Part shown: positions 6,473 through 34,811 of the stretch, piece by piece
Layout of the letters: every line of letters starts with the position of its first letter
How positions within the stretch are numbered: the first letter of the stretch is position 1
Source of the DNA: Acidimicrobiia bacterium
Lineage (GTDB): Bacteria; Actinomycetota; Acidimicrobiia; Spongiisociales; UBA5794
NCBI GenBank assembly: GCA_033791245.1
Contig: JASJHC010000403.1
Coordinates: 1 to 35,284, forward strand
Direction: 5' to 3'
Length of the DNA stretch: 35,284 nucleotides
The notes under the pieces: generated by a model
What the model saw: the letters and a program-made list of their open reading frames with translations, nothing else
Told to the model about the DNA's origin: nothing
Database searches by the model: none
Position numbers and translations under genes: made by a program

Positions 6473-7432
6473 TCAGCCTTGTGGGATATCGGGGAGAATC
6501 AGGACAGGAATGGTCTGGACGACTTCGCATTCCGGGTAGTCAACCACGACGAGAATGATCTCGTTTACGTCATCCATCAGGTACGTGACAACAATCCGTT
6601 CCCTGCTGTCATCCCCGTGCAACAAGCCGGTTGCAATGGCTTCGCTTGTGGGCGGAATGCCGAGGTCGATTGCCAATTGGGTGAAGCATTCGCCTGCATC
6701 GATCGTGACCGTCTTGGCGAGCTGGTCGCGGAGCCGAAGATCAGCGCCATCGGCGATGAATTCGTCAATGACCTTCTGGCGGATCTCTTCGGTGAGGTCC
6801 CCAAACCCGATTACAGGGAGAATGTCAGCCAGGCCTATTGCCGAGTCGGTGCTCTCTGTCGCTGCCATGGTGGTTGTGGTCGCCGCCATCGGCGCTGCGG
6901 TGGTTTCGGTGGACGCTGCATACTCGGCGGAGTCGTCGGCAAGGCCACCGGCCAGGATGTCCTCACGATCCTGCGGGACCATCTCAGCCGACGCTGTCGT
7001 TGTATCCATAGCCGCCGACTCTTCGTTGGCCGCAGCAGACGCTGCCGCTGTCGTAACTGCGGCGCTGTCAGAGTCACTGCCCCCCAAAATGTTCGGCACA
7101 ACCATGAAGATCACAAGGAACATGGCGGCGGTCCCGGCCGCGACCGACACCCAGCGACCCCAAGCCACGGTGGCTCGCCGCGGTGCAGGCGAGCGAGTGG
7201 GTACACCAAGCTTGCTTCTGAGGTCAGAGTGGAGCTGTGCGGACTCAGTGGCAGACATATAGACAGCAGGGGCTTCAGCAAGAACCGACAGCGCTAGCCG
7301 TTGGAGCTCGAGGTCCTCGGTGCATTCTGTGCACCCGGAAATCTCCGCTAGGGCGGCGGTTGCAGCCGCTTCGTCGAGGGTTTCCTCGGCGAGCGCCATG
7401 ATGATCTCTTGGTCGTGTTTGTGCATATTCAT
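6473..7432 (-). CDS. Membrane-spanning anti-sigma factor (partial zinc-finger anti-sigma motif, one TM, extracytoplasmic domain)
   Basis: The start overlaps the sigma gene stop (ATGA at 7429-7432). The N-terminus has CTEC within ...AEISGCTECTEDL. It has a single TM helix (WVSVAAGTAAMFLVIFMVV), an Ala/Thr-rich linker and a C-terminal domain. Confidence 0.7.
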   Translation of the reverse strand: MNMHKHDQEIIMALAEETLDEAAATAALAEISGCTECTEDLELQRLALSVLAEAPAVYMSATESAQLHSDLRSKLGVPTRSPAPRRATVAWGRWVSVAAGTAAMFLVIFMVVPNILGGSDSDSAAVTTAAASAAANEESAAMDTTTASAEMVPQDREDILAGGLADDSAEYAASTETTAAPMAATTTTMAATESTDSAIGLADILPVIGFGDLTEEIRQKVIDEFIADGADLRLRDQLAKTVTIDAGECFTQLAIDLGIPPTSEAIATGLLHGDDSRERIVVTYLMDDVNEIILVVVDYPECEVVQTIPVLILPDIPQG

Positions 7433-8050: not shown

Positions 8051-9352
8051 CTAGGGCTGGAAAGTGACCTCAAAAACTTGGGTGAAGTACTCGCCGGGGG
8101 CCTGCTCGGGGATGTCGGTGAACCACAGGAGCCAGAAACCACCGTCACGACCTGGTAGCTGCAGGCTGACCGGAGCGTCAAAAACCGTTCCGGAGCCTAT
8201 GGGTTCCCACTCGGCAAACGACGTCGGAACCGTCTCAGCCCACAAGACAGAGTACGAACTATTGGGTGAGGCGCGCAGCTCCATCATCCCCGGGGCGCCA
8301 CTGACGCGGAACGTTATGCCGACCCCATCCTTGAGTAGCGGCAACGGATCGAAATATCGCTCTGTCCTCCACGACGTCCCGAAGTCCCCATCGGTCAACA
8401 GCGGAAGATCTCGTTCTCGCTCGCTTTGGTCCCCGAACGGGTCATAGACCGCAGCCTCTGCCGCGAGAACGCCCGGCGCCGCCTCGGGAAGCGTCGTCTC
8501 TGTTGGCAAGGACGTTGTAGTTGTCACGATCCTGGCCACAGGTGGCGTTGCCGGAAACAGAAAGGGCGAGTCGGGGTCGACGTCGATGACGAGACCGATG
8601 ATCGCGATGACTATTGCACTGACCAGCAGCATGCCTGCGGGTATCAGCCATCTCCATGACCACCCGGCGCGGCGCGGCGGTGGTAGCGAAGAGGGAATGG
8701 CCCGCAGCGCGGTCCCGAGAGCCTTGGCGTCGTAGTCGCCGGATTCAGCGCGTCGGATGGCATCGTCTACCGACGGCGGAAGTCCCTCAACGAGATGGGA
8801 GGGGCGTATGGCAGGGCTGGCAGAGCCCGTTACCGCGATACGGAGTGCCCTCGCTAGGGCCGCAGTGTCCTCGCTTGGCTGATGAGAGCGTCGCTTTCGT
8901 CCATAGGAGCTGAGCTTGGCGGGATGCGCAGCCGAGAAGACGATCGCTCCTGAGTCAATTGAGCCATGGGTGACGCCCGCCGCATGCAGGGCCGCAAGAC
9001 CTTCAGCTAGTCCTGCGGCGTTGGGCAAGAACTCTGAAACGGGGAGAGTTTCCCCTGCCGCCAGCCGGTCGGCGATAGAGACCCCGCCGTTCCACTCGAT
9101 GGCGGCGTGGGCTCCTCCCGAAGGGGACTTGGCGACCTCGTAGACGCCGGCAAGGTGAACATGCTCGACCGTTGCGGCAGCACGAGTTGCTGCGATGAAT
9201 TCAGCCAGGCGCGCCGGGGAGGCGTCGGCGTCGAGTACCCGAACCAGGATGGGGCGGTCGAGTGCGGTATCAGTGGCAAGCCACTCATCGATGTCGCCAT
9301 CGCGCCCAAGTCTTACTTGAGTTTCATATCGGTCGGGGAGTTGTGGTGCCAC
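8051..9352 (-). CDS. Stand-alone MviN/MurJ-associated-type pseudokinase: degenerate Ser/Thr kinase fold, one TM, extracellular beta-sandwich-like domain
   Basis: It is kinase-like but lacks the catalytic motifs: LVRVL replaces VAIK, THGSID replaces HRDLKP, and there is no DFG. It has one TM helix (WLIPAGMLLVSAIVIAIIGLVI). The C-terminal domain has the DGD..TSWRTE.Y signature seen in the mycobacterial MviN ectodomain. Confidence 0.75.
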   Translation of the reverse strand: MAPQLPDRYETQVRLGRDGDIDEWLATDTALDRPILVRVLDADASPARLAEFIAATRAAATVEHVHLAGVYEVAKSPSGGAHAAIEWNGGVSIADRLAAGETLPVSEFLPNAAGLAEGLAALHAAGVTHGSIDSGAIVFSAAHPAKLSSYGRKRRSHQPSEDTAALARALRIAVTGSASPAIRPSHLVEGLPPSVDDAIRRAESGDYDAKALGTALRAIPSSLPPPRRAGWSWRWLIPAGMLLVSAIVIAIIGLVIDVDPDSPFLFPATPPVARIVTTTTSLPTETTLPEAAPGVLAAEAAVYDPFGDQSERERDLPLLTDGDFGTSWRTERYFDPLPLLKDGVGITFRVSGAPGMMELRASPNSSYSVLWAETVPTSFAEWEPIGSGTVFDAPVSLQLPGRDGGFWLLWFTDIPEQAPGEYFTQVFEVTFQP

Positions 9353-13534: not shown

Positions 13535-13691
13535 CCAGGTTGTCGTCGGGGGGATAGCGCCGCCGCGGCGGCTCGTGACCAGGTTGTAGTGGTTCTAGAC
13601 GTTGTCCTCGGGCGGGGCGGCAACCGCCGCGGCGGTGCCTGACCGACTTGTCCTGGTTCTAGACGTTGTCCTCGGGCGGGGCGGCACCGCC
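13521..13691. repeat. Three tandem copies (44, 64 and 63 bp) of a GC-rich unit spanning the convergent 3' ends of cca and the downstream minus-strand gene
   Basis: The units begin GCGGCGGCTCGTGACCAGGTTGT at 13521 and 13565, with a diverged copy at 13629. GGTTCTAGACGTTGTCCTCGGGCGGGGCGGCA occurs at 13591 and 13655. The junctions contain the palindrome CCGCCGCGGCGG. Confidence 0.85.
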
Positions 13692-14423
13692 GTTACTCGA
13701 CATGCCGAGGACGCCGATGACGACTAGCCCCATTGCGCCGAGCAGCGCCAGCATGAAGCCGAGACCAAGATGGGCTGCCCTTGCATAGAAGTACATGACG
13801 ACGAACGTGACTGCGCCTGCCGCGATTGCTACCGCAGATCCGGTGATCCGATTGCTATCGAAGTAGGCGAGATACAGTCCGAAGAGTCCGCCGAGGGCAC
13901 CAAAGCCGGCGAGTAGTCGCCCGAGGGGAAAGCTGCCTGGATCCATCAGCCGGAACGGTCCCCAGTTGAGGGCTGCCCCGACCAGGATGAGTACCGCGGC
14001 CGCCGCCATCCCTATCGCGAGGAGGTTGTGGAGCTTTGAATCTTCGAGGTAAGCGGCGGCGGCCTTGGTCCTGAGATCACTGAATTCATCAGTGGGCGGG
14101 AGAGCCACCGGTACCGCTGCGGCAGCCGTCTTGGCTTTGGTCTTCTTCTTGTAGCGGCGTTTTTTGGGTGGTGGCGTGTCATTGACCCCGAGCAGGTCCA
14201 GGAAGAAGGCACCGTTTTCGAGGGCGAGGACAAGGGTCTCGTCATCTGCGACAAGATAGAGCTCCTCCTTGACCTTCTTGACCTGCACGTCTGCGTGTGG
14301 CCAACTGCCGATCTCTGCGTCACCGGCGCGGATTGAGACACGGTTCAGGTCAAGCGTTACTTTGGCATCGAGGGCCGCATCGGGCTCATCGAGGAGATGA
14401 ACGGTTCCATAGAAATCGTGCAT
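13659..14423 (-). CDS. Hypothetical membrane protein: soluble N-terminal domain, Lys-rich linker, four C-terminal TM helices
   Basis: I chose ATG 14423 (MHDFYGTVHLL...). It has a PPPKKRRYKKKTKAKT linker and then hydrophobic helices. I recognised no family. Confidence 0.55.
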   Translation of the reverse strand: MHDFYGTVHLLDEPDAALDAKVTLDLNRVSIRAGDAEIGSWPHADVQVKKVKEELYLVADDETLVLALENGAFFLDLLGVNDTPPPKKRRYKKKTKAKTAAAAVPVALPPTDEFSDLRTKAAAAYLEDSKLHNLLAIGMAAAAVLILVGAALNWGPFRLMDPGSFPLGRLLAGFGALGGLFGLYLAYFDSNRITGSAVAIAAGAVTFVVMYFYARAAHLGLGFMLALLGAMGLVVIGVLGMSSNGGAAPPEDNV

Positions 14424-14499
14424 GGACACCCTTACTTTCAGATCAAGTATGAGAATCGGGTGGATTGGTGCTCTCCTTGAGCACCAATCCATTTCGCCG

Positions 14500-15222
14500 T
14501 TATCTGCGCGGGACCTCTGCCCAAGGGAGGTCCTTGTCGATTCGTGGTTCTCCGGGGAGCCCGAGGACCTGCTCGCCGAGGATGTTCTTCACGATTTCCG
14601 ACGTCCCGCCTTCGATGGAATTAGCCCGGCTCCTGAGAAAGGAGCGGCAGACATCCTCAGGCCCCTCAGGGACGAGGAGCTCGTATGTGTCGTAGAGCAT
14701 GCCGGCGGCACCCAGCAGAGAGACGGCCATTTCGTAGATCTGCTTGGTCAGTTCAGCGAAGACCCCACTTGGCAATGTGGGCAACTGTGGTCCAGACCTT
14801 CTGACCGTTGACTACCCACTCGTCGCCGTCTTTGACGGCACGAGTTGCCAGCGCGGCGACGTCAGATCCGGTTCCGGGTTCCGAGAAGAGCTGATACCAG
14901 ATTTCCTCTCCGGTAAAGAGCGGCCGCAGGTAGCGGTCGAGCTGGTCCTCGTTTCCGTGTGCCAGCAGCATGGGGGCACCCATGCCATGGCCGATGATGT
15001 CAAAGAACGTGGGGCGATGGGCCGTAGCGGTGTTGAGGCGCTCGTCGACGAGGTCTTGATAGCGGTGACTCAAGCCAAGGCCACCCTGCCTTTGGAAAAG
15101 CGCACCCAGGCGAGTCCGAGGTCAAATTGTGCGCCCATGAGCTCGTCGCGATCGCCGGCGGGATCGTGTTCTGTCACAAGTTGATCGAGGAGGCTGCTGA
15201 TCAGTCTCGCTTCGTTGCTCAC
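14500..15222 (-). pseudogene. Acyl-CoA dehydrogenase remnant (one frameshift plus a large internal deletion)
   Basis: Three collinear pieces lie in three frames. The N-terminus runs 15222-15070 (VSNEARLISS...ELMGAQFDLGLAWVRFSKGR). The second piece runs about 15085-14753 (GGLGLS...FTGEEIWYQLFSEPGTGSDVAALATRAVKDGDEWVVNGQKVWTT). The C-terminus runs 14784-14500 (...SIEGGTSEIVKNILGEQVLGLPGEP). Together they give about 245 aa against about 390-400 for intact homologues. Confidence 0.8.
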
Positions 15223-15234
15223 ACGAACACAGCC

Positions 15235-16092
15235 CTAAACGACTACGAGTTCTTTGATACCAACCTTCTTGATGATGTCAGCGAGGCTCTGGAGGTGGGC
15301 CGGGTCGGCTTCGGGTATGTCAGAGAACTGGGGACGAACACCTTGTTGCCGGAATCCGATGAGCTTGATTCGCATTGCGGGGTCGACGTCGTACAACCAA
15401 CGTGCGGTGCGCTCGACGACCTCAGGGGAGTCGTTCTTGCCGGGGACCATGAGGAGGCGAACTTCGTAGAGGCGTTGCCACTCGGCCAGATGCTTGATCG
15501 ACTCGAGGACGGCGGTGTTGTCGCTCCCCGTCATCTCCATGTGCACGGCCGGATCGAGTGCCTTGAGGTCGATCATGGCCCCGTCCATAACCGGAAGGAG
15601 GCGGTCCCAGGTGTCACGACTTGCCGATCCGTTGGAGTCGATGAATGTCGTGAGGTGTCCCAGCTTGTCGGAACACTTGAGAGAGCAAAACAGGTTTGCG
15701 ACGAAATCTGTCTGCAGGGTTGGTTCTCCTCCGGAAACGGTGATGCCGGAGATGAAGTGGGAAACGTCTTCGATCTGTTTGACCAGAGTGTCGAGCTTGA
15801 CCATCTTGCTCAGTGGGGTGCTATCGGATGGGCACACGTCTATGCAAATACCGCATTCTGTACATTGATCTTCGTCGACGACTACTTGCTGGCGGCCGTC
15901 GAACCAGAGAACCATCTCGGGACAAGGTTCGACACAGATCCCGCAACTGTCGCACTCGTTGATGGTGTAAGGGTTGTGACAGGCGATGCAGTTGAAGTTG
16001 CAGCCCTGCATGAACACAACAAAACGGTTGCCCGGTCCGTCGACCGCGCTAAACCGGATTACATCATTGAGGTGCCCTTGGGCTGCTTTCAC
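15235..16092 (-). CDS. yjjW: Glycyl-radical enzyme activating protein (radical SAM, YjjW-like, with two ferredoxin-type Cys clusters)
   Basis: It has VDGPGNRFVVFMQGCNFNCIACHN (CxxxCxxC), then CDSCGICVEPCP and CTECGICIDVCP, and GITVSGGEPTLQ. The GTG start overlaps the upstream GRE gene by 29 nt. Confidence 0.85.
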   Translation of the reverse strand: MKAAQGHLNDVIRFSAVDGPGNRFVVFMQGCNFNCIACHNPYTINECDSCGICVEPCPEMVLWFDGRQQVVVDEDQCTECGICIDVCPSDSTPLSKMVKLDTLVKQIEDVSHFISGITVSGGEPTLQTDFVANLFCSLKCSDKLGHLTTFIDSNGSASRDTWDRLLPVMDGAMIDLKALDPAVHMEMTGSDNTAVLESIKHLAEWQRLYEVRLLMVPGKNDSPEVVERTARWLYDVDPAMRIKLIGFRQQGVRPQFSDIPEADPAHLQSLADIIKKVGIKELVVV

Positions 16093-17614
16093 GACTGAGG
16101 ACCCGCTTTACGTATCTGTCTGTTACGTGCGAGTTCTTCACAGATCCGGCCGCAAATACCGTGCTTCCGTGCCGGCCACCCATCTCGTCGAACTGTTCCA
16201 CGTCGCATTTCCGGACGAGATATCCGGTAATGCGGATGAAACCGTTCGTCGCAAGATTGAACGTGAAGTCCCGCATGCCCTCTCTGAAGGCACCCCGGAT
16301 GATATCTACCATCGCGGAGGGGTTACGACGTACGGTGTCTTCCACGTGAAAGATGTCGCTGACACCTGCGTGGAACAGGTCATGGTGAGGAGCGACGGCG
16401 CGGATGTGGTCGAACATCTCGGGCTCTTCGCCGATGGGGATGCGGGTTCCGGCTGTCACTTCGAGATCGCTGTCGATGCCCGATTGGGAGTGGAGGAACG
16501 CCCTGCCGTTGTTGCCCTCGCAGTACGGCATCGGTCGATCGGCAACGAGTTCGGCGATCCTTGCGGTGATTCGATACGAGAGCTGGTTGGCTTCGTCGTC
16601 GTGTCCGTAGCGGCCTTCTTGGCCGGCGGCTTCCATGAGCAGGTCTACCGCCTCGGCGAGGCCGTAGACACCGTACATGGCAGAGAATCTGTCGAGTTCG
16701 ATGAGTCCCTCGACGGCAAGGAAGTCGTGTTCGAAGAACTTGGCTTCTTCAACCAGGTAGCGGATCCGAGCTTCAATGAGTTCGGAGAGAAGCTCCACAT
16801 AGTGGGGGAGGGTTTCGTCGATGAAGCTATCGATGCCACCTTGGTGGAGTAGAGCAACCTCTTTGAGGTTGAGCCGATTGAGGGTGTGGGAGCCGCCACC
16901 GATCTTCAACGAGTTGTAGCAACTCACTGCTGCATAGTCCTCGCCAAGGTCGCGCACCATCAGCGGATGGTTCACAAAGTGTGGCTTGCCGGTCTCGAAA
17001 ACGGTCAGCACCGCTTCGAGAATCAGTTCGTCTGGGGTGATCTCCGGGTCAACCTTGAGGCTGACGTTCGGTACGACCTGGAGCAGTTCGCGTTCGATAC
17101 GAAACAGAGTGCGGGAGATCCGGCTGTCGTGTGGTCCGAGGTTGGTGTGGACAAAAGCGTCCGGGAGCATGCGGTCGAGGGCTCGCCAGAACAGCTTGAG
17201 CTTCTTGTAGAGAGCATCGTCATCTTCAGCCTCGGCATACGGTTCGAGGATCTTGTCGAAGTCACCCAGATATACCGGGTAACCGGTGATCGATGGCACC
17301 TGGGTGTACATGATGAGAAGGAAGTTGAGGGCCTCGTCGAGGTCGGTTGGGGCGTCGAGCTCGAGGTGTGCGGACCCATTGCGGAGTGCCTTGCCATAGT
17401 CGGGGAGGATGTAGCGACCCCGATACGGTGCGGGCCCTTCGAAGAGATCACAAATAATCTGCTTATTGAGGGCCTCACGAGCTGCTTCGCTCAATGTCGG
17501 GTATTCGAGGACACCCTCAGCCAAACCGGCAAGGTAATGCTTGCGTTGGTGGTAAGTAAGGGTCGGATCGTTGACCACTTGCCGGGTCCGGATCCGAAAT
17601 TCCTCCATGTTCAT
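16064..17614 (-). CDS. yjjI: YjjI-family glycyl-radical enzyme (small, 516 aa, function unknown)
   Basis: I chose ATG 17614, which lies 8 nt after AGGAGG. The resulting 516 aa equals the length I recall for E. coli YjjI. The C-terminal motif FIRITGYLV fits RVxG[FWY]. It is immediately followed by a dedicated activase. Confidence 0.75.
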   Translation of the reverse strand: MNMEEFRIRTRQVVNDPTLTYHQRKHYLAGLAEGVLEYPTLSEAAREALNKQIICDLFEGPAPYRGRYILPDYGKALRNGSAHLELDAPTDLDEALNFLLIMYTQVPSITGYPVYLGDFDKILEPYAEAEDDDALYKKLKLFWRALDRMLPDAFVHTNLGPHDSRISRTLFRIERELLQVVPNVSLKVDPEITPDELILEAVLTVFETGKPHFVNHPLMVRDLGEDYAAVSCYNSLKIGGGSHTLNRLNLKEVALLHQGGIDSFIDETLPHYVELLSELIEARIRYLVEEAKFFEHDFLAVEGLIELDRFSAMYGVYGLAEAVDLLMEAAGQEGRYGHDDEANQLSYRITARIAELVADRPMPYCEGNNGRAFLHSQSGIDSDLEVTAGTRIPIGEEPEMFDHIRAVAPHHDLFHAGVSDIFHVEDTVRRNPSAMVDIIRGAFREGMRDFTFNLATNGFIRITGYLVRKCDVEQFDEMGGRHGSTVFAAGSVKNSHVTDRYVKRVLSRESSPRAPQ

Positions 17615-17710
17615 TGTGAGACCTCCTGGGCGCATGCCCGGACTAATAATCGAGCATCGGAGCCGATTTGTCCAGTGGTCTACTAGAGGTTCCCAGTTGT
17701 CAGTAGTCTC

Positions 17711-19219
17711 ATGGCTCATGATCGTCACCAACACCCGGCTATGAAGACGCCTACCGAAGCACGCATATGGCGTGGTCCCATTTCTCGTCCTTCACGCCGT
17801 GAACTGCTCGCTCTCCTCGCGATTCTTGCCGTGTCGGGCCTGGTGGCTGCCAAATTTGTGGCTGCCGGTGCCCCGCTTGGGCATGACGAGGCGGTCTATG
17901 CCCTCAAGAGCCGCCAGATGAAGTTGGGGGGCACTTCAGCGTGGTACTGGAACGACTATCGATCACCCGGGCTGCCGTTGCTGCTCCAACTGACCTGGTT
18001 GGTTAGGGGCACCGAACCGTTCTTGCGGATGAGTGTGTGGGCGTTCGGTTCTCTGGGTGTGATCCTTACGTGGTTGATCGGTCGCAGCCTGTTTAGTACA
18101 CGGGCGGGTTTGTTGGGGGCTGCTGGGCTGTCACTTGCCTCGCCGTGGCTTGCGTCTTCAACAAGTATTTGGCCCGATGTCCCTGGTGCTGTCTTGGGAA
18201 TGGCAGCGATAGCGATCGTCTTGTTTGCTACCGATGGCGATCGTGTCTCATGGTGGGTTCTGGCTGCAGCACCGTTTGCCGTTGCCGCGGTCCTGGTTCG
18301 TTACGGCGCTCTGGTCCCGATGGGCATCGGTGGCCTGGCGATTCTGATATGGCGGTGGCCGATGCTCCGTCGCGGGTGGCCGCAGCTACTGAGCCTTGCT
18401 TCGATTATCGCGGTAGGGAGCCTTCTGATCCTTTTGGTGCCGGGCGTCACCGGTGCAGCTACCAGTCCGTTGTCTTCGATCAACACTTCGAAGGCGGCGT
18501 CTGACTTCCCAATTACCCAAGGCATTCGCGACTACATCAGGCAGGCCGACTTTGTCGCAGGCGGCTACGTGGGGCTTCTCCTCATATTGGGGCTGGTGCT
18601 GGCTGTCCTCTATGCGAAGAAGGATCCCGGGCTACGAGCCTCCGCGGTATTCGTGTTTTCGGTCACCGGGGCGACTGCTCTTGTTCTGGTCTTGATTCTG
18701 CATGGGGAGTATCGATATTTGGTCCCGGTCTTTCCTTTTGCGTGGATCCTCGGCGGCATGGGTCTCGCCGAAGCATCTCGCAGGATTCCGCGGGAGACGG
18801 CCATGGCTGTTGCCGTCGTACTGGCGATTCTTCTCCCGATCAACGCACTGTCGCACGGTGACTTGGAGGCGGACAAAAATGACGAGCGATTTGGTGACCT
18901 GCGGCTCGTTGCCACCGCGATCGATGCTGAACATGGCTATGAAGAATGCGGAGTCATCACTTCGTATATTCCACAGGTTGCCTGGTATAGCGAGTGCGTA
19001 ATTCGTCGCTTTGAGACGGTGCCGGTGCTCACCTCCCCCTTCTTTGTGGAACCGCAGGCGGATTACATGCTGCTGGTCACGGGAGGAAAGCGCCAGCCTC
19101 AGGGAGAGAGCCTTGATGCCTATTTGGAAACGACCGACGAGGTCTTTATCGAGTCAGGAAACCCCGAGGCAGGCAATCTGGAATACGCGGTCGTATACAC
19201 GTTGCAGGACGATAGCTAG
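17711..19219 (+). CDS. GT-C fold membrane glycosyltransferase (family 39 / ArnT-PMT_2-like)
   Basis: It has about 11 TM helices and a first-loop HDEAVYA motif (the DE motif of ArnT/PMT enzymes), plus a C-terminal soluble domain of about 130 aa. The start could be ATG 17711 or ATG 17741. Confidence 0.65.
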   Translation: MAHDRHQHPAMKTPTEARIWRGPISRPSRRELLALLAILAVSGLVAAKFVAAGAPLGHDEAVYALKSRQMKLGGTSAWYWNDYRSPGLPLLLQLTWLVRGTEPFLRMSVWAFGSLGVILTWLIGRSLFSTRAGLLGAAGLSLASPWLASSTSIWPDVPGAVLGMAAIAIVLFATDGDRVSWWVLAAAPFAVAAVLVRYGALVPMGIGGLAILIWRWPMLRRGWPQLLSLASIIAVGSLLILLVPGVTGAATSPLSSINTSKAASDFPITQGIRDYIRQADFVAGGYVGLLLILGLVLAVLYAKKDPGLRASAVFVFSVTGATALVLVLILHGEYRYLVPVFPFAWILGGMGLAEASRRIPRETAMAVAVVLAILLPINALSHGDLEADKNDERFGDLRLVATAIDAEHGYEECGVITSYIPQVAWYSECVIRRFETVPVLTSPFFVEPQADYMLLVTGGKRQPQGESLDAYLETTDEVFIESGNPEAGNLEYAVVYTLQDDS

Positions 19220-28805: not shown

Positions 28806-28894
28806 GGCATCAGCTCCCTGTGGGTTCGGCTACTGCATTAAGATTATCTGGAGAGTGGCCGTATGTGGTTGCGATCTGCTGTGTCGTATCCGGC

Positions 28895-28916
28895 TATTGC
28901 GCAATAATATTGCGCC
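28895..28916. promoter_or_regulatory. Candidate Lrp/AldR operator: TATTGCGC direct repeat containing the 10-bp palindrome ATTGCGCAAT
   Basis: The sequence TATTGCGCAATAATATTGCGCC is read directly. It lies in the 137-bp divergent ald-lrp intergenic region, 27 nt upstream of the regulator start. Confidence 0.4.
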
Positions 28917-28942
28917 GCAGAACCGAAAAGCGAAGGATTATT

Positions 28943-29410
28943 GTGACGTATCATCTCGACCCCACGGACCGAGCGATCTTGGCCGTACTTGGAGATGATG
29001 GGCGTATCAGCAATGTGGCCCTTGCGGAGAAGGTGCACTTGTCCCCGTCAGCATGCTTGCGCCGACTGCGCCGTCTCGAAGACGGTGGTGTCATCGATCG
29101 TTATGCGGCTGTCATCGATCCGGCCAAGATCGGGAAAGCCACCTCGGTATTCGTTGATATCTCCCTGTCGAGCCAGCGTGATGACCTTCTCGACTCCTTC
29201 GAGGCCGCGGTCAAGGACGTCCCTGGAGTGATGAGCTGTCACCTGATGGCCGGCGACGCCGACTATGTCGTTCAGATCCTGTGCGCCGACGTGGAGGACT
29301 ACGAACGGATCCATCGCAGCTACTTGTCTCGGCTGCCCGGCGTGATCAGGCTTCGCTCCAGCTTTGCGCTGCGCACCGTCTGCTCAAAACCCGCCTACGA
29401 GATCGAATAG
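28943..29410 (+). CDS. Lrp/AsnC-family transcriptional regulator (AldR-like by context)
   Basis: I chose GTG 28943, which follows GAAGGA. It has LDPTDRAILAVLGDDGRISNVALAEKVHLSPSACLRRLRRLEDGGVI and an AsnC_trans_reg C-terminal domain. It is divergent from ald, as in mycobacteria. Confidence 0.9.
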   Translation: MTYHLDPTDRAILAVLGDDGRISNVALAEKVHLSPSACLRRLRRLEDGGVIDRYAAVIDPAKIGKATSVFVDISLSSQRDDLLDSFEAAVKDVPGVMSCHLMAGDADYVVQILCADVEDYERIHRSYLSRLPGVIRLRSSFALRTVCSKPAYEIE

Positions 29411-29436
29411 CTGAGCTGGAGCTATTCACCACCCTC

Positions 29437-29814
29437 CTAGTGATGCGTCATCGCATCGGTTCCGGCGATCCGAGCACGGTAGGTGGCGATAGCCCTCTCG
29501 CCTATACGTTCCGGAGGCTCGTTTGTCCGGTCTCCCTGTTCAACGAGCCACTGCCATAGATCCGGTCGAACCGCCATCGAACCGGCGCGGTGGGCACCCG
29601 GGCGCATCAACATAACGAACAGAACTACAAGCAGCCCGATCATGAAGAAGACCGCAACCAAGATGGCGCGGGCAAACGGGTCGCCATGCCATATCTGCAC
29701 CGAACCGCCGCTCGCCTCCGGGATCCGGAAAGCTCTAAACAGATACACAAAGATGTAGACACCGCTGTAGATCAAGAAACTAACCAGTGCAACCAGGGCG
29801 AGCACTCTCTTCAT
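29437..29814 (-). CDS. Hypothetical 125-aa membrane protein (2 TM plus soluble tail), last gene of the four-gene operon
   Basis: The TM helices are VLALVALVSFLIYSGVYIFVYLF and AILVAVFFMIGLLVVLFVML. The start lies 1 nt after the stop of the preceding gene. Confidence 0.55.
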   Translation of the reverse strand: MKRVLALVALVSFLIYSGVYIFVYLFRAFRIPEASGGSVQIWHGDPFARAILVAVFFMIGLLVVLFVMLMRPGAHRAGSMAVRPDLWQWLVEQGDRTNEPPERIGERAIATYRARIAGTDAMTHH

Positions 29815-29815
29815 G

Positions 29816-30343
29816 TCATGGCTCCCTTTCGATGTTGCGGACTGCTTCCTGGTGGTCGGCGTCAGTGGGGAGGACGATGCGTCCCAAAGAGGTTTCTCTA
29901 ATGAGTCTCATCACCGGCCTCGGTAGTGATTTGTACATGGTGGCCACTACTACACAGAGCATGGCCACAGCTAGCAAGGCCGCCCCGAACCCATAGCCAA
30001 GACCGATGGCCCAGGGGCTCTCGTAGAACAACCCGAGGCGGTCGTCGTAGAACCGGTTGCCAACAATCACTGAGACTGCACCGGCGACAATGGCAGCGAC
30101 AGCGAGGCCCAGATAGGTCAGCCGGCTGCGGAGACCGCGGCGAAGGAACCAAGGTTCGCGGAGCCGATACCCGGCCGCATCTATAGCATCGCCGATCGCC
30201 CCGTAGGTGCCGACGACCACATTGTGTTTCCTGCGGAGGCTGCTGTGCGGAAAGAGGCGACGCAGTGCATCTGAGATGAGTAATGCACCCGAGATGAGGA
30301 TTCCCACCCCCATCAGGCTTGGGAAGAACACAGCAATAGTCAT
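29816..30343 (-). CDS. Hypothetical 175-aa membrane protein (about 4 TM), third gene of the four-gene operon
   Basis: It has hydrophobic helices, e.g. IAVFFPSLMGVGILISGALLI, LTYLGLAVAAIVAGAVSVIV and FGAALLAVAMLCVVVATM. The start overlaps the dikinase stop (ATGA). Confidence 0.55.
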   Translation of the reverse strand: MTIAVFFPSLMGVGILISGALLISDALRRLFPHSSLRRKHNVVVGTYGAIGDAIDAAGYRLREPWFLRRGLRSRLTYLGLAVAAIVAGAVSVIVGNRFYDDRLGLFYESPWAIGLGYGFGAALLAVAMLCVVVATMYKSLPRPVMRLIRETSLGRIVLPTDADHQEAVRNIEREP

Positions 30344-32931
30344 GGCGATTCCGGTTTCTGTCGATCGACGAATCCGAGTGTTCCATCGACAAGCACGGAG
30401 TCTCCATCGTTGAGGACGCGGGTCGCTTGGGGAACGTTGAGGACGGCGGGTAGTCCTAATTCACGAGCCACGATGGCGGCGTGGGAGAGCGGCCCGCCCG
30501 TTTCGAGGACGATCGCACCGGCGGTGAGGAACAGGGGCGTCCAGGACGGGTCGGTCGCGTGGGCCACCAGGACGTCGCCGCGCTCCAGGGCAACACCATC
30601 GGCCAGCGACGCAATAACACGGACCGCGCCGGTTGCTTGCCCCGGACTCGTCGCCCAGCCTTGGAGTCGGTTGCCGGTCGGGGCCTCGCGGAGCTCGATG
30701 TTGTCGGGTCGTCCCCTGAACCAGTCTGGGAGCGGGCCCGCCGCATTGCAGACGGTGGCGGTCTCGCGACGGGCCTCCAGTTCGTTCTTGTCGACACCAC
30801 ACGATCCGAAGAGCATTCCCTCGAGCTCAGCATCTGTCAGGTATCCGACGAGGTCAGGGTTGGGGAGTTGGCGCGACGCGGCGAGCCGTCTGCTGGCTTC
30901 GAGAATGGTGCGGCGTTCTTCTCCACCGAGGACAAGAAGGGCACTCTTGGCCTGTTCCCGAAGTTCGAGGAAACGTGTGGTTTCGGCAGTCTGGCGTCGT
31001 AGCCAGCGTGCCCGCATGTCTACGAACTGGCCTGTGAGGATGCGCGTTCTCCGCCACTTCTTGTCGGAGGAGAGATGCTGATACAGCCTGGAGAATGCAT
31101 CGTCATCGGTTGATGTTGGTGTCGGACGTGGCGTCGCTTGCCGGTCGAGATTCTGGAGTTGGTTCCAGATCCAGACATCGTCCTCGGTCCACGATACATC
31201 TCCGTATACGGCTTTCGAGCCCATGGCTCGCAGCACGACGTCGAGGGCATTTAGAAACTCGGGACCTTGATCAGGAAGCGCTCCGATCTTGGTGCGCAAT
31301 CCAGATGGGGACCCGTTGATGAGTGCTCGAATGGCGGGAGTTCCATGGCTATTGAGCACGGCGGCCAGGCCGGTATTGCGATCACCCCGCAAGGTGCTGG
31401 TATTCATTTCTTGTTGGGTGAGCATCTGTGCCCACGAGACGGCTTGGTCTTCGGTCATCCAGCGTTCCAAGAGCAGCTCCAACGCACGATAAGTGGCTCC
31501 GGCCGCACTGGACGCTCCTACTTCGGCGGTGTAGCCCCGCCAGGCAAGGTCTCGGATCCTCTGTCGATAGGCAACAAGACTTCTGACCGGCAGGGTCGAG
31601 ATATCGATGTCGAGCTGGGCAATTGCCTGCGCCGCGGCCGCGGTCAGCTGCACTTCGTCGAAGATCCGTTTGTGGGCTTGTCTGGAACGCAACGCGGCGA
31701 AGAGATGAACCCCACTTGATTTCGCACCAGGGTCTTCGGCGATGGTGTGGCCGAGATACTGGCGTTCCACCTCTGCGGGGTCTCCGCCTGGCAGTGATGC
31801 AGCAACTGCGCAGATAGCGGAAAGGTCGAGCACTGCTCTCCCACGGAACCGAGAGACGAGGGGACGGTTGTCTGGCGGGGTGTCTCCACCAAGATCGGCA
31901 AAGGTGGAGCGGAATGCGTTCTCCAGCATGGGGGCGTTGATCGTCCACAACAGTGGAGACACGACTCCGGGGAGCATCTCAATGACACCGTGTGGTGTGT
32001 AGGTGGCCTGATTGTGGTGGTCGCTATCGAAACCATCATCGATGCTCGATGCTGCGACAGGATCGGTGATGGGGCGTACCTGCAGTAGAGATATCCCGTT
32101 GCTGTCGTAAGCCCACTCGATGTCTTGGGGGCGGCCGAGAGACGATTCGATTCGTAGCGCGAGACGGGCCAGATCCTCTAGGAAGATCAGTTCGTCCGGG
32201 TTGGTCGCCGAGACGATTTCGAGGGTGTCCTTGCGGATCAGGAAATCGGAGGGAGTGACCTTCCCGGATACCAGGGCCTCGCCCATTCCGCGTACCGCCT
32301 CGATTCTGATCAGGTGCTCGCGGCCTCCGGGGTCCTTGGTGAAAGCGACGCCGGACCACTGTGGATTGACTTGTCGCTGCACTACCACACCCATGGCGAG
32401 GCTCTTGTGCGAGATTCGATGGCGACGTCTGTAGGCACGAGCCGCCGGCATCCACAGTGATGCCCAGCAGCGCCGTATCGCGGTTTCGAGTTCGGCGATC
32501 GTCGTCACGTCGGTGACGGTCAGGTATTGACCAGCGAAAGATGCCTCCACCATGTCCTCAGCTGTCGCCGACGAACGGACCGCAACCGGACCGCCGCTCA
32601 ACAGAGTGTCTCCGATACGCTTGATGGTTGCTGCCACGGTTTCCGGCAAGGGTGCCGCCAGGAACGTGCGCTCAATAGCAGCCGCTTCCGCAACGAGGTG
32701 ATCTGGCTTGGGGAGAGCTGACGTTCGAAGATCCTCGACCAGAAGCTGCAGGCTGTTGTCGGAGACAGCCTCGTTGTATGCGGCTGTGGTCAATACTGCG
32801 GTTGCGGGAATCGGATAGCCATGAGCCAGCAGCAGATCGAGACCGGCCGCCTTGCCGCCGACGGCAAGCGGATCGTGTCGAGATCCGTCTAGGAAAGTGA
32901 ATAGAGGAGCTTGTCCCCTGGTGGCGATCAT
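30340..32931 (-). CDS. PEP-utilising-enzyme-family dikinase: N-terminal PPDK_N/ATP-grasp, large central domain, C-terminal swivelling His domain (architecture like rifampicin phosphotransferase)
   Basis: The N-terminus has AVGGKAAGLDLLLAHGYPIPATAVLTT and VAVRSSATAEDMVEASFAGQY. The C-terminus has GQATGAVRVI...GDVLVAHATDPSWTPLF..AGAIVLETGGPLSHAAIVARELGLPAV. Length is 863 aa. Confidence 0.85.
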   Translation of the reverse strand: MIATRGQAPLFTFLDGSRHDPLAVGGKAAGLDLLLAHGYPIPATAVLTTAAYNEAVSDNSLQLLVEDLRTSALPKPDHLVAEAAAIERTFLAAPLPETVAATIKRIGDTLLSGGPVAVRSSATAEDMVEASFAGQYLTVTDVTTIAELETAIRRCWASLWMPAARAYRRRHRISHKSLAMGVVVQRQVNPQWSGVAFTKDPGGREHLIRIEAVRGMGEALVSGKVTPSDFLIRKDTLEIVSATNPDELIFLEDLARLALRIESSLGRPQDIEWAYDSNGISLLQVRPITDPVAASSIDDGFDSDHHNQATYTPHGVIEMLPGVVSPLLWTINAPMLENAFRSTFADLGGDTPPDNRPLVSRFRGRAVLDLSAICAVAASLPGGDPAEVERQYLGHTIAEDPGAKSSGVHLFAALRSRQAHKRIFDEVQLTAAAAQAIAQLDIDISTLPVRSLVAYRQRIRDLAWRGYTAEVGASSAAGATYRALELLLERWMTEDQAVSWAQMLTQQEMNTSTLRGDRNTGLAAVLNSHGTPAIRALINGSPSGLRTKIGALPDQGPEFLNALDVVLRAMGSKAVYGDVSWTEDDVWIWNQLQNLDRQATPRPTPTSTDDDAFSRLYQHLSSDKKWRRTRILTGQFVDMRARWLRRQTAETTRFLELREQAKSALLVLGGEERRTILEASRRLAASRQLPNPDLVGYLTDAELEGMLFGSCGVDKNELEARRETATVCNAAGPLPDWFRGRPDNIELREAPTGNRLQGWATSPGQATGAVRVIASLADGVALERGDVLVAHATDPSWTPLFLTAGAIVLETGGPLSHAAIVARELGLPAVLNVPQATRVLNDGDSVLVDGTLGFVDRQKPESP

Positions 32932-34646
32932 GGTGCCACCGCCGCGGCCGAAACGGTGAACGAGTAGTCGACGATCGTTACTCCGGTCCAGTCAAGGCCA
33001 GCCAGCCGCACTCCGATTTCGCTGCCACCGGTGTCGACAATCTCGACGAAACCGAACTGTCCGCCGCCAGGGAACGCACCTTCGCTATAGGGACCACCCT
33101 TGGCGCTTCCGGGCCGGTCGAGCGCCGCGGCGTGTAGGAGAGGGAAGGCTGCGTTCCCTGCGGCGGAATAGTCGGTGTTGGTGCCGTCGTCGATCGCCAC
33201 CATGTGGGCGTCGCCGGCAACCATCAAAATGTTGTTGATGTCGTGATCTGCGATGAAGTTGGCGAGACGCACCCTTTCGCTGGTGTAGCCACCCCAGTGG
33301 TCCGCCCCCGGTTCGGCAGCGGCAATCCAGGGGACAGAGCTGACAACAATCGTCAGACTATGGGTGGAGGCGGCAGCGAGAAGTTGCTCTTGGAGCCAAC
33401 CGAACTGGGTCGTCCCGAGCATCGTCTTGTCTTTGCTGTCAGTGATCGTGTTTGGATCGCGCATCGAGCGACCATCGAGAAGGATGAACTGAACACGACC
33501 GATACTGAACGTCTGATTGATTGACTCGGCATCAGGCAGGGGGTAGTGAGGCACATAGGAGGTGTAGGCATCGCGGGCGAGGCGCCGGGTCGGCGCGGTT
33601 CTGTCGCTGTCGTTGCCCCCGTAGTCGTGGTCGTCCCACACATAGGCGACCGGCACCGAGGCGAGCAGCGCCGCCTGCGCTGGCTGGGTCAGCGTCTTGT
33701 CGAACGATTCGGTGAATTGTGCTGCGGTTTCCATGTAGTCGGCGTAGAAGAAGTCGCCGGGCACCAGGAACAGATCGGGTTGGGCCTGCAGGATGGTGTC
33801 GTATACAGCGCCGTTGGAGCCGAGCCGAGCGCAGCTGCCAATCGCAACGGTGAAGCTGGCAGCTTGCGATGAGAAGGTGTGGAAAGAACCGCTCCGTTCT
33901 GGACGGAGTATGTCGTCAACGATGAAACTGTAGGTGTAGTTGGTCTTGGGGATCAGTTGGCTCAGCTCGAAACGCCAAACTCCGTCGGTCCCTGCGCCAT
34001 CGATGCTGTGGGATCGACCACCGTCATCGGTGACCACCGCGGTTGTCGTGTTGGCGTCTTCGACCCTGGCAACGATGGTGGCTGAGGTGTCGGTGACGCC
34101 ACCGGTCCACAGCCAGGTCACCGGGGAGTCGGGAAGTGCGGTGCGGTCCGACTCGGGATGTGAAGGCCCGTAGCCATGGTCGTAGAGAGATTGGGCAATC
34201 ACGCTCCCGGTGAATAGCACCATGATCACGACAGTTGCCAGGAAGACGATCGAGGCGACGGACTTGGTGCGGTGCCAGGCAACGAGAAATGCCACCGCGG
34301 GGACAAGGAACACCGCGGCAGGTATAAACGCCAGGAGTGGTTGGTGTTGCAGTGCGGCGAAGACGCCAAGCGAGGCGGCCGCGACGACGAGGATCCCGCC
34401 GCCGATCCCTTCCCAATGCCACGCCACGACGGTGCCGATGGCAAGGATGACGAGGGTGAGCAACTGCGCTTGACGTTCCCACAACTCGAGATCGGGGCCG
34501 TGGGGGAAGCCGACGGTGACGGCGAGCATCACAAAGACCGACACCGCAACCACCGCCCAGGTGCGGGCGAGGCGGCGTGACAGCTGTTCCACACGGTCGG
34601 TTATCGCAACGGCGTGGAGTCCGTGGTCGTTCTCCGACTGGGCCAT
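32928..34646 (-). CDS. PhoD-family alkaline phosphatase/phosphodiesterase fused to an N-terminal five-TM domain
   Basis: The first ~150 residues contain five hydrophobic helices, and the first is preceded by SRRLAR. A PhoD_N-like beta domain follows. The metallophosphatase motifs are IGSCARLG, LVPGDFFYAD, VWDDHDYGGND, ILLDGRS and VAGDAHM. GGAGGGA lies upstream of the ATG. Confidence 0.85.
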   Translation of the reverse strand: MAQSENDHGLHAVAITDRVEQLSRRLARTWAVVAVSVFVMLAVTVGFPHGPDLELWERQAQLLTLVILAIGTVVAWHWEGIGGGILVVAAASLGVFAALQHQPLLAFIPAAVFLVPAVAFLVAWHRTKSVASIVFLATVVIMVLFTGSVIAQSLYDHGYGPSHPESDRTALPDSPVTWLWTGGVTDTSATIVARVEDANTTTAVVTDDGGRSHSIDGAGTDGVWRFELSQLIPKTNYTYSFIVDDILRPERSGSFHTFSSQAASFTVAIGSCARLGSNGAVYDTILQAQPDLFLVPGDFFYADYMETAAQFTESFDKTLTQPAQAALLASVPVAYVWDDHDYGGNDSDRTAPTRRLARDAYTSYVPHYPLPDAESINQTFSIGRVQFILLDGRSMRDPNTITDSKDKTMLGTTQFGWLQEQLLAAASTHSLTIVVSSVPWIAAAEPGADHWGGYTSERVRLANFIADHDINNILMVAGDAHMVAIDDGTNTDYSAAGNAAFPLLHAAALDRPGSAKGGPYSEGAFPGGGQFGFVEIVDTGGSEIGVRLAGLDWTGVTIVDYSFTVSAAAVAP

Positions 34647-34765
34647 AGCGTCCCTCCGGCGTTGCCGGGAGCCGTCCTTATCACCAACGTACGTCGGCAG
34701 GTCGTGGCGGGGATAGGGGACTTACGTCCCGATCGGATGGGGCCGCGGCATTTCTGGATCAATAC

Positions 34766-34794
34766 TTGACACGACTAACAGCATTAGTTACATT
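34766..34794 (+). promoter_or_regulatory. Candidate promoter of the SRPBCC gene (TTGACA-17 bp-TACATT)
   Basis: TTGACA is at 34766-34771 and TACATT at 34789-34794. It lies in a locally AT-rich patch 35 nt upstream of the chosen start codon. Confidence 0.5.
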
Positions 34795-34811
34795 AACTAA
34801 ACAAGTTAGTT
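34774..34811. promoter_or_regulatory. Two operator-like palindromes, ACTAA-N5-TTAGT (34774-34788) and AACTAA-N5-TTAGTT (34795-34811), centres 22 bp apart
   Basis: Read directly. The first lies in the promoter spacer and the second between the -10 and the RBS. The inner half-sites also form TTAGTTA-cat-TAACTAA. Confidence 0.5.

Follow-up and report, generated by a model that had tools for sequence, protein, structure and literature searches.

A contig of an Acidimicrobiia bacterium (JASJHC010000403.1, assembly GCA_033791245.1; 35,284 nucleotides, analysed as a whole and referred to here as the window) carries four minus-strand open reading frames (ORFs), g1 to g4. They encode a membrane-anchored PhoD-family metallophosphatase, an ATP-dependent dikinase with the architecture of rifampicin phosphotransferases (RPH) and two small membrane proteins (Table 1). 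The dikinase, g3 and g4 form a fixed unit; the phosphatase is one of three unrelated and interchangeable kinds. The enzymes are new members of known superfamilies, and the composition of the system is undescribed: full-text literature searches returned no description of a pairing of PhoD or PAP2 with a dikinase, or of RPH homologues with membrane or phosphatase partners, in agreement with what the original prediction had said. The logic of a kinase inside and a phosphatase outside is itself already known, and the cassette is a variant of it. The reading adopted here, tentatively and with slightly less than even confidence, is a compartmentalised cycle of phosphorylation and dephosphorylation acting on a membrane-resident, probably lipid, compound, with the window holding one variant of the module. 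Of the two readings first offered for this DNA, it is the second, a phosphorylation cycle on an envelope compound, that fits the evidence best.

All four ORFs were recovered by an ORF check at the coordinates reported earlier. The junction types also stood as first described, the number of junctions being three and not four. Junctions in relatives are mostly overlaps of 4 nt (−4) or spacings of a few nucleotides. A simple scan found no promoter-like sites inside the unit on the operon strand, and two terminator-like sites inside it where 3.5 are expected by chance. The gene overlaps suggest co-translation of a complex.

The neighbourhoods of six dikinase homologues (72% to 46% identity) all had g3 and g4 downstream, with differing flanks. 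Gene g4 was used as an independent anchor for locus scans. The GTDB genome scan gave 27 loci, one of them spurious and one a remnant; the remaining 25 (of 26 true loci) had the order g2-g3-g4. The metagenome scan gave 72 loci, with g3 present in 55/55 of those that had at least 700 nt upstream of g4 and g2 in 37/38 of those that had at least 1500 nt. Chance adjacency is excluded, since g3 and g4 are co-conserved with the dikinase in dozens of loci, and the tightly coupled operon proposed from the window is thus found elsewhere. Co-conservation of all four genes was borne out for the dikinase, g3 and g4 and failed for PhoD, which is one of three interchangeable phosphatases. All genome loci from the g4 scan belonged to metagenome-assembled genomes (MAGs) of uncultured Acidimicrobiia/Actinomycetota, and the cassette is spread over many Acidimicrobiia lineages with differing flanks. 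Two loci (L016 and L030) with typical Acidimicrobiia-type cassettes and synteny lie in MAGs labelled Gammaproteobacteria, probably through binning contamination. The closest public relative found was a metagenome contig of 11976 nt (L040, RCND010004696.1), whose g2 and g4 proteins are ~98% identical to those of the window.

Four cassette architectures were distinguished by the phosphatase. Type I has the order DUF7670-PhoD, dikinase, g3, g4 (the window, L001, L002, L003 and others). In type II, dikinase, g3 and g4 are followed directly by a convergent PAP2 gene with six transmembrane (TM) segments (L004, L016-L032 and others). Type III consists of a g4-like gene, the dikinase and, encoded after them, a fusion of ~930 aa, g3::PAP2::DUF7670::PhoD (L034, L037/L038 and P0359; partial in L039). 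Type IV has an MMPL transporter, dikinase, g3, g4 and a TM-anchored DSP-PTPase (L085/95/111, L091-93 and L086), which is convergent in L102. Among 35 non-redundant cassettes informative on both sides, 17 had DUF7670-PhoD upstream, 14 a convergent PAP2, 3 a DSP-PTPase and 1 no phosphatase. The automated census gave 17 PhoD, 14 PAP2, 1 DSP-PTPase and 1 none; the DSP-PTPase count of 3 includes two lineages dropped by the filter (L091-93 and L085/95/111) and assigned outside the census. No split cassette held two phosphatase types.

The type II PAP2 genes encode the full KX6RP, PSGH and SRX5HX3D signature, which in this family lies on a 6-TM core (PMC7413402), and Pfam PAP2 was annotated in L004, L005, L034 and L037. 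These partners are of the integral-membrane type and are nearest to undecaprenyl-diphosphate phosphatases, PgpB and LpxE, at scores of 39-42 bits for SepP (NF047884, cut-off 250), 26-30 for the YbjG type (NF008813, cut-off 229) and 22-35 for PgpB (NF007975, cut-off 261). In the type IV phosphatase the motif VHCGAGVGRTG is present, and PF22741 is matched at 96 bits (cut-off 27). The g3 portion of the type III fusions was recognised at E values of 4e-12, 1e-8 and 3e-12.

A neighbour-joining tree of the dikinases (200 bootstrap replicates) placed types I, II and IV in one clade (99%) and type III in another (100%). Monophyly of type I received 2%, and type IV branched inside type II; the core has therefore kept its composition through several exchanges of the phosphatase. 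A single reciprocal loss of PhoD and PAP2, drawn from an unbootstrapped tree, was rejected on the bootstrapped tree with more taxa. The rule that PhoD occurs only where the dikinase is at least 50% identical was also rejected: L071, L077 and L098 carry PhoD at 46-48%. A group of loci with neither phosphatase was resolved into the third type (DSP-PTPase) and decayed cassettes. The presence of three unrelated folds in one slot, together with the fusion, is strong genomic evidence for a functional link between the kinase module and the phosphatase.

Several further arrangements were recorded around the phosphatase slot. In type IV a gene of the MMPL family (RND-type lipid exporters) is co-directional with the dikinase and lies just upstream of it (L095 2136-4475, L091-L093 and L111); the MMPL proteins of the two sublineages are only 29-49% identical, so that this adjacency has been conserved over considerable divergence. 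In the type II locus L004/L005 (6360-7004), a GNAT gene (Acetyltransf_3) overlaps the start of the dikinase gene, in the slot taken by PhoD in type I; two DDE_3 transposase copies flank this locus and two tandem PAP2 genes lie downstream. Decayed cassettes were found in one lineage (L068 7163-8369, L070 6633-7461, L014 7431-8369 and L069). An N-terminal fragment of g1 (residues ~10-54) abuts the last ~50 residues of g2 in L068 and the middle of g3 in L070 and L014, with g4 intact. L014 also contains an N run, with a divergent gene of PAP2 type downstream, and can be read as a deletion or as a scaffold gap; L068 and L070, in which no N runs occur, show that true deletion remnants are found in that lineage.

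Topologies were predicted from hydropathy and the positive-inside rule. For g1, five TM segments with N-in/C-out orientation were predicted; it has a basic N-terminal tail, a conserved basic W[HKQ]RT[KR] loop and the acidic segments PHGPDLE and YDHGYGPSHPE. The predictions for g3 (three TM segments, N-out/C-in) and g4 (two, N-in/C-in) put the WHGDP loop of g4 outside. The fusion in L037 has 3 (g3) + 6 (PAP2) + 5 (DUF7670) TM segments, and its PAP2 C1 and C2 motifs lie in the loop between TM3 and TM4. In PAP2 enzymes the active site is on the periplasmic side (PMC7413402). From this TM parity and an outward PAP2 site it follows that g3 should end inside, DUF7670 start inside and PhoD lie outside, which places both phosphatase sites of the type III fusion at a predicted outside position. 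The extracytoplasmic PhoD domain behind a 5-TM anchor that was originally proposed is, as a prediction, upheld by both the positive-inside pattern and the parity of the fusion. The outside orientation of the DSP-PTPase is weakly predicted, from a weak charge bias.

The domain order and size first assigned to g2 were supported by Pfam and by a full-length structural alignment. Pfam matched PPDK_N at residues 23-243 and PEP-utilizers at residues 783-853; PEP-utilizers_C had no match, and the His domain stands at the extreme C-terminus. When the AlphaFold2 model of g2 (predicted local distance difference test score, pLDDT, 83.9) was searched with Foldseek, only Listeria RPH-Lm aligned over the full length (5HV1, E 6.8e-37, ~920 columns), at 20-23% identity to the RPH-Lm structures. 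PpsA and PPDK structures matched ~375-520 of ~900 columns, in the ATP-grasp and swivel parts only. The best NCBIfam match was the rifamycin-inactivating phosphotransferase, followed by phosphoenolpyruvate (PEP) synthases, all far below cut-off: 292.6 bits vs 999 (NF041857) and 207.5 vs 1700 (NF000283) for the RPH equivalogs, 288.7 vs 1350 for RedH, 276.7 vs 598 (NF005057) and 273 vs 739.75 (TIGR01418) for PpsA; the PigC equivalog score was also far below its cut-off. In phmmer, residues 13-291 and 654-856 aligned with RPH-Lm and residues 292-653 did not, and the rifampin-binding signature blocks could not be matched in that unaligned part.

The catalytic residues of RPH-Lm identified by mutagenesis are K22, R117, T136, R666-E667-K670 and H825 (PMC4844700). 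Their equivalents in g2 are K27, R119, T138, R658-E659-K662 and H817. In an alignment of 48 sequences of the g2 family, R658, E659, K662 and H817 were each present in 48/48, K27 in 47/48 and R119 in 46/48, and the position of T138 was T or S in 45/48; these residues are kept in all four cassette architectures. Given the RPH architecture and the full set of catalytic residues, the expected chemistry is ATP + X-OH -> AMP + Pi + X-O-phosphate, with the phosphate expected to be transferred via the swivelling phospho-His817. Validated rifampin kinases (clade A) are >42% identical to RPH-Lm, and distant RPH clades have been predicted to keep phosphotransfer and to have changed substrate (PMC4844700). 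Since g2 is ~22% identical to RPH-Lm and scores so far below the RPH cut-off, the identification as a rifamycin phosphotransferase was not sustained. PEP synthase and PPDK were rejected as well: g2 has no C-terminal PEP/pyruvate-binding domain, its scores are below cut-off and the structural match to PpsA is partial. On these comparisons g2 is a predicted dikinase of RPH architecture, neither a rifampin kinase nor a PEP synthase.

Protein g2 resembles RPH (Listeria RPH-Lm; PDB 5FBS/5HV1; NF041857) in three-domain order, length (863 vs 867 aa) and catalytic residues, but RPH is a soluble resistance enzyme that acts alone, and g2 comes with two obligatory partners in the membrane and with a phosphatase encoded alongside. 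The chemistry of ATP-grasp, swivel-His and RPH-like substrate domain is shared with HpeHI (hydroxyphenylethanone kinase), MarK and PigC/HapC/RedH, and the HpeI structure 9GOJ matches the g2 ATP-grasp; unlike g2, those enzymes are cytoplasmic catabolic or biosynthetic proteins with neither membrane partners nor a paired phosphatase. The RPH superfamily has diversified to many hydroxyl acceptors (PMC12167813).

Membership of g1 among the PhoD-like phosphatases (PF09423) was established by a Pfam match at residues 269-488 (104.4 bits, cut-off 27) and by the metal-ligand set. In B. subtilis PhoD the Fe3+/Ca2+ ligands are provided by Cys, GDxxY, WDDH[DE], N[ND] and GDxH (PMC4223295). The corresponding motifs of g1 are C272, GDFFY (297-301), WDDHD (337-341), N345-D346 and GDAH (478-481), with the ligand residues C272, D298, Y301, D338, D339, N345, D346 and D479 all present; GD..Y, WDDH[DE] and GD.H were kept in 112/112 g1 homologues. 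The PhoD equivalog NF058638 was matched below cut-off (38.1 bits vs 1000). Pfam DUF7670 (PF24709) covers residues 24-129 (42 bits, cut-off 29), and full-text literature searches found no publication mentioning this family. A signal for twin-arginine translocation (Tat) was rejected, the N-terminus being a 5-TM domain and the twin arginine not conserved: RR occurs in the N-terminal tail of only 77/112 homologues, so that the SRRLAR motif once singled out is not a feature of the family. In fold and Cys-type Fe3+/Ca2+ ligands, and in being extracytoplasmic (by prediction in the case of g1), the protein is like B. subtilis PhoD (2YEQ) and the PhoD-family phospholipase D of S. chromofuscus (PMC4223295). 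It is unlike Bacillus PhoD in having the 5-TM DUF7670 anchor in place of a cleavable Tat signal, in lacking a C-terminal cap helix and in being encoded by a gene that overlaps the dikinase gene. A DUF7670-PhoD gene 43% identical to g1 was also found with no dikinase within 8 kb (L036, 5246-9878); a Pfam-less ORF of 922 aa overlaps it upstream, and an ABC/FtsX transporter gene comes after the DUF7670-PhoD gene. In L006 and L037, too, the cassettes have ABC transporters of the MacB/FtsX type at their flanks.

Neither g3 nor g4 matched a Pfam or NCBIfam family, and neither resembles any transporter family. The predicted topology gives g3 a basic cytoplasmic loop of ~50 aa (residues 24-76) and a conserved C-terminal tail. 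In g4 the WHGDP loop is invariant, and the AlphaFold2 model has TM segments at 2-28 and 46-70 and helices at 84-97 and 101-123. This protein is the best conserved of the cassette (55-93% identity where g2 has 44-72%), and nothing in the whole family is more strongly conserved than its cytoplasmic tail. An exhaustive g4 profile search of 1.8 billion representative proteins returned 69 clusters only. Distant g4-like members are ~100 aa long and retain TM2 and the tail; their genes lie directly upstream of the dikinase in all three contexts examined (P0384, P0377 and L034). Mutual paralogy of g3, g4 and DUF7670 was rejected at hhalign probabilities below 4%.

Among the top Foldseek matches of the g4 model, 7/9 were ribbon-helix-helix (RHH) proteins (CdbA, MatP, CopG), all non-significant (best E 2.0), with root-mean-square deviations of 1.9-4.5 A over 36-48 residues. 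For the tail, Pfam gave nothing, and in a profile search against PDB sequences the strongest match had E 0.87 and RHH proteins were absent from the matches. An RHH domain, with non-significant fold matches and no sequence support, is therefore kept as a hint only. Two unusual arrangements of the small genes were noted. In L035 (8001-12641, on a 3.6-Mb Acidimicrobiales contig), DUF7670-PhoD is convergent with a dikinase of 685 aa and a membrane protein of 281 aa; the latter has weak g4-like YVVLYLYRW and g3-like FVPVLLGLGILL motifs and so may be a fused g4/g3 relative. In L039 (6001-10113) the dikinase is split into an ATP-grasp/central ORF of 641 aa and an ORF of 502 aa that comprises the swivel domain and then a g3-like first TM segment, with PAP2 at the contig end. 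The split reflects either a frameshift or a true two-component enzyme fused to g3.

In the proposed cycle, the soluble dikinase would be kept at the cytoplasmic side of the membrane by the basic loop of g3 and the tail of g4, which would also let it reach its acceptor, a hydroxylated compound residing in the membrane that is probably a lipid or another amphiphile, for instance a polyprenol. Once phosphorylated, the compound would pass to the outer face, possibly through g3/g4 or through the MMPL transporter of some relatives, and the outer phosphatase would remove the phosphate, kinase and phosphatase acting on one compound from opposite sides of the membrane. The cycle could run in the direction of export, the phosphate serving as a handle, or in that of recycling, with the alcohol flipping back in neutral form and being phosphorylated again inside. 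The dikinase is invariably encoded with g3 and g4 and almost always adjoins a membrane-anchored phosphatase. A lipid substrate is hinted at by the integral-membrane PAP2 partners, by MMPL in type IV and by the activities of the PhoD family, members of which act on teichoic acid and phospholipids (PMC4223295). The nearest working analogy is the Gram-positive cycle of undecaprenol kinase (DgkA) and phosphatase, for which the opposing phosphatase is unassigned (PMC5723303). In that cycle the kinase acts on a lipid at the inner face, and membrane phosphatases (BcrC/UppP/PAP2) face outward; DgkA is unrelated to g2, however, and the genes do not form a cassette, so the likeness is one of working and not of membership.

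A number of points weigh against this cycle. The substrate itself is inferred, and the characterised substrates of the RPH superfamily (rifampin, phenolics and bipyrrole aldehydes) are small soluble or amphiphilic compounds, not lipids (PMC4844700, PMC12167813). The PAP2 gene, being convergent, is not co-transcribed with the trio. A phosphatase gene is missing within 7 kb in L006, an intact cassette, and in 1.4 kb in L022. Against lipid phosphatases, the PAP2 proteins score far below curated cut-offs, the outward DSP-PTPase is weakly based on charge bias only, the docking of g2 to g3/g4 is presumed and the topologies are predictions. Finally, g3 and g4 together have five TM helices, which is small for a translocator. 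The more specific form of the proposal, in which a membrane-docked RPH-type lipid kinase (for example for a polyprenol carrier) works with interchangeable outward phosphatases as an envelope-lipid phospho-cycle, is on balance unlikely.

Vitamin and nucleoside salvage combine a periplasmic phosphatase, a Pnu-type facilitator and a cytoplasmic kinase, and the anatomy of the cassette (a phosphatase outside, small membrane proteins, a kinase inside) is equally compatible with salvage by metabolic trapping. The outer phosphatase would strip an organophosphate, the compound would enter through g3/g4 and the dikinase would phosphorylate it again and trap it. PhoD enzymes are classical exoenzymes for scavenging phosphate and organophosphates (PMC4223295), the substrates known for the RPH family are small compounds (PMC4844700, PMC12167813) and interchangeable phosphatases of broad specificity fit a generic dephosphorylation. 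We regard this explanation as rather improbable, because 6-TM integral-membrane PAP2 enzymes characteristically act on lipid phosphates (PMC7413402), type IV is accompanied by an MMPL exporter and not an importer, the two small proteins have no likeness to transporters and Pho-regulon or nutrient-uptake genes are not consistently near the inspected loci.

A role in signalling or regulation, with the swivel-His phosphorylating a protein (g3, g4 or another) or with g4 as a membrane-tethered regulator, was judged quite unlikely; the outer phosphatases would then have a sensing or an unrelated role. The conservation of the g4 tail and its RHH-type Foldseek matches point in this direction, as do the conserved operator-like repeat upstream of g1 (see below) and the existence of regulatory kinases derived from PPDK, such as VadK. 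Those matches are non-significant, however, no RHH protein was found by sequence profile, and the inverted repeat is absent from types II, III and IV although g4 is present there. The invariance of the RPH substrate-site residues R658, E659 and K662 is what small-molecule phosphotransfer would predict, and the mutual replacement of three unrelated phosphatases is left unexplained.

The streptomycin-6-phosphate logic pairs an APH-type kinase encoded within a biosynthetic cluster with an extracellular phosphatase. By this model, on which the first of the original readings drew, a toxic metabolite would be phosphorylated inside, exported inactive and reactivated by the outer phosphatase. The kinase-inside/phosphatase-outside logic, the inactivation of an antibiotic by RPH-type kinases (PMC4844700) and the MMPL exporter adjoining in type IV are in its favour. 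Against it, neither the 35-kb window nor those neighbourhoods of related loci that were annotated or inspected contained biosynthetic genes, and the cassette has a dikinase where the streptomycin system has its APH-type kinase. The surrounding synteny is conserved housekeeping (RNase H, PPIase, the arginine operon and alanine dehydrogenase), and occurrence in many Acidimicrobiia lineages with varied flanks is atypical of a cluster-linked resistance gene. Producer self-protection or pro-drug export thus found no support and is highly improbable. An ordinary Rph rifamycin-resistance kinase or PEP synthase adjacent to the other genes by chance, suggested by the best NCBIfam match and by the Listeria RPH structures as best PDB matches, is largely refuted and scarcely credible in view of the sub-threshold scores, 21-23% identity (vs >42%), a central domain that does not align, the missing PEP/pyruvate-binding C-terminal domain and the co-conservation with g3 and g4.

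The intergenic sequence upstream of g1 has largely diverged, apart from three conserved elements (Table 1). The inverted repeat lies ~24 nt upstream of the -10-like box. GGAC-N3-5-GTCC was found at -78 to -87 in 7/9 type I upstream regions, the background density being 0.146 per kb, so the repeat noticed in the window is real and non-random; a variant with one mismatch occurs in L012 (type I), and no type II, III or IV cassette has the repeat upstream. Its probable role is that of an operator or activator site confined to cassettes led by PhoD. The CGTACGTTG box, which we infer to be a promoter element, was found at -42 to -53 in 8/9 type I loci and is unique within each locus. Together the repeat and the box suggest dedicated transcriptional control of the PhoD-led version. 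The hairpin over the Shine-Dalgarno sequence of g1 is conserved in sequence in most type I loci; RNAalifold gave 8 pairs, 0/8 with compensatory change, and a structured regulatory RNA was not accepted, covariation being absent and a structural role unproven.

Table 1. Positions of genes, domains, junctions and other elements in the window (numbered from its first letter).
Feature	Position	Strand	Description
g1	32928-34646	minus	572 aa, PhoD-family metallophosphatase, membrane-anchored
g1 anchor	34152-34646		residues 1-165, 5-TM DUF7670 domain
g1 catalytic domain	32931-34151		residues 166-572, PhoD domain, predicted extracellular
g2	30340-32931	minus	863 aa, ATP-dependent dikinase with RPH architecture
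g2 ATP-grasp	32032-32931
g2 central domain	30676-32031		substrate-binding
g2 C-terminal domain	30343-30675		swivel phospho-His domain
g2 His817	30481-30483		codon; GGPLSHAAIV
g3	29816-30343	minus	175 aa, 3-TM membrane protein
g4	29437-29814	minus	125 aa, 2-TM membrane protein
g4 WHGDP loop	29677-29691		codons
g4 conserved cytoplasmic tail	29440-29583		residues 78-125, extended segment and two helices
g1/g2 junction	32928-32931		ATGA overlap, ccATGAtc
g2/g3 junction	30340-30343		ATGA overlap
g3/g4 junction	29815		TGAcATG, 1-nt gap
Inverted repeat GGGACGTAAGTCCC	34717-34730		GGGAC-GTAA-GTCCC, 84 nt upstream of g1 ATG
CGTACGTTG box	34685-34693	minus	47 nt upstream of g1 ATG, TACGTT -10-like hexamer (TANNNT type)
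Hairpin CTCCCGGC-AACG-CCGGAGGG	34652-34671	minus	includes g1 Shine-Dalgarno GGAGGG (34652-34657)
Sigma-70-like promoter match	34766-34794	plus	TTGACA-17-TACATT
Palindrome	34784-34800		TTAGTTA-CAT-TAACTAA, perfect
Lrp/AsnC regulator gene	28820-29410		convergent with g4
g4 to Lrp/AsnC interval	29411-29436		26 nt between stop codons; holds 8-bp inverted repeat GAATAGCT...AGCTATTC
ORF without Pfam match	13659-14492	minus
ORF without Pfam match	15127-16098	plus
ORF without Pfam match	15986-16852	plus
ORF without Pfam match	16886-17686	plus
GT-C (PMT_2) glycosyltransferase	17711-19219
ORF without family	6473-7432		beside sigma factor gene
ORF without family	8051-9352		beside sigma factor gene

On the divergent side of g1, the sigma-70-like promoter match in Table 1 is the only one of the region and drives the SRPBCC gene. 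It is overlapped by the perfect palindrome, which is probably a TetR operator because this block is kept upstream of an SRPBCC-TetR operon in L001 and L013. The mechanical start of the SRPBCC ORF (TTG at 34766) is almost certainly too far upstream, as the promoter and palindrome lie there. At the other end of the operon, a hairpin 3' of g4 was rejected as a terminator, for it folds like shuffled sequence (z = -0.78). The mechanical start of the Lrp ORF (196 aa) is probably also too far upstream; orthologues have 155-157 aa.

The window is an origin-proximal (oriC-proximal) housekeeping region. Its genes include jag, rsmG, parA, parB, trxB, a sigma factor, RNase H and a CCA-adding enzyme, and further a GT-C glycosyltransferase, the arginine operon, alanine dehydrogenase (alaDH) and Lrp. 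No PAP2 gene is present anywhere in the window. An anti-phage defence system was considered and rejected: the PADLOC-DB defence models had no match for g1-g4 at E <= 0.01. The four successive ORFs without a Pfam match (13659-17686) adjoin the GT-C gene.

Within the RPH-like dikinases, a large superfamily that is mostly unexplored (PMC4844700), the subfamily described here is set apart by its two constant membrane partners, neither of which has a Pfam or NCBIfam family. The cassette is also a strong example of non-orthologous displacement: phosphatases of three unrelated folds take one slot, and a four-domain fusion exists in addition. It provides the first functional context for DUF7670 and for the two families that have no Pfam or NCBIfam model. 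It also counsels caution in annotating such metagenome genes as rifampicin-resistance determinants or PEP synthases. The prediction that can be tested is that a single membrane-accessible substrate is used by the kinase on one face of the membrane and by the phosphatase on the other. If that substrate is a carrier lipid, the cassette would bear on polyprenyl-phosphate recycling and on the undecaprenyl-phosphate phosphatase of Gram-positive-type envelopes (PMC5723303). An envelope-lipid phospho-cycle, if true, would give Acidimicrobiia either phospho-handle export of lipids or a flippase-independent recycling of carrier lipid, in which dephosphorylation would occur outside, the neutral alcohol would flip and re-phosphorylation would follow inside. 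The RPH superfamily would also gain its first lipid substrate and its first member working in a membrane complex.

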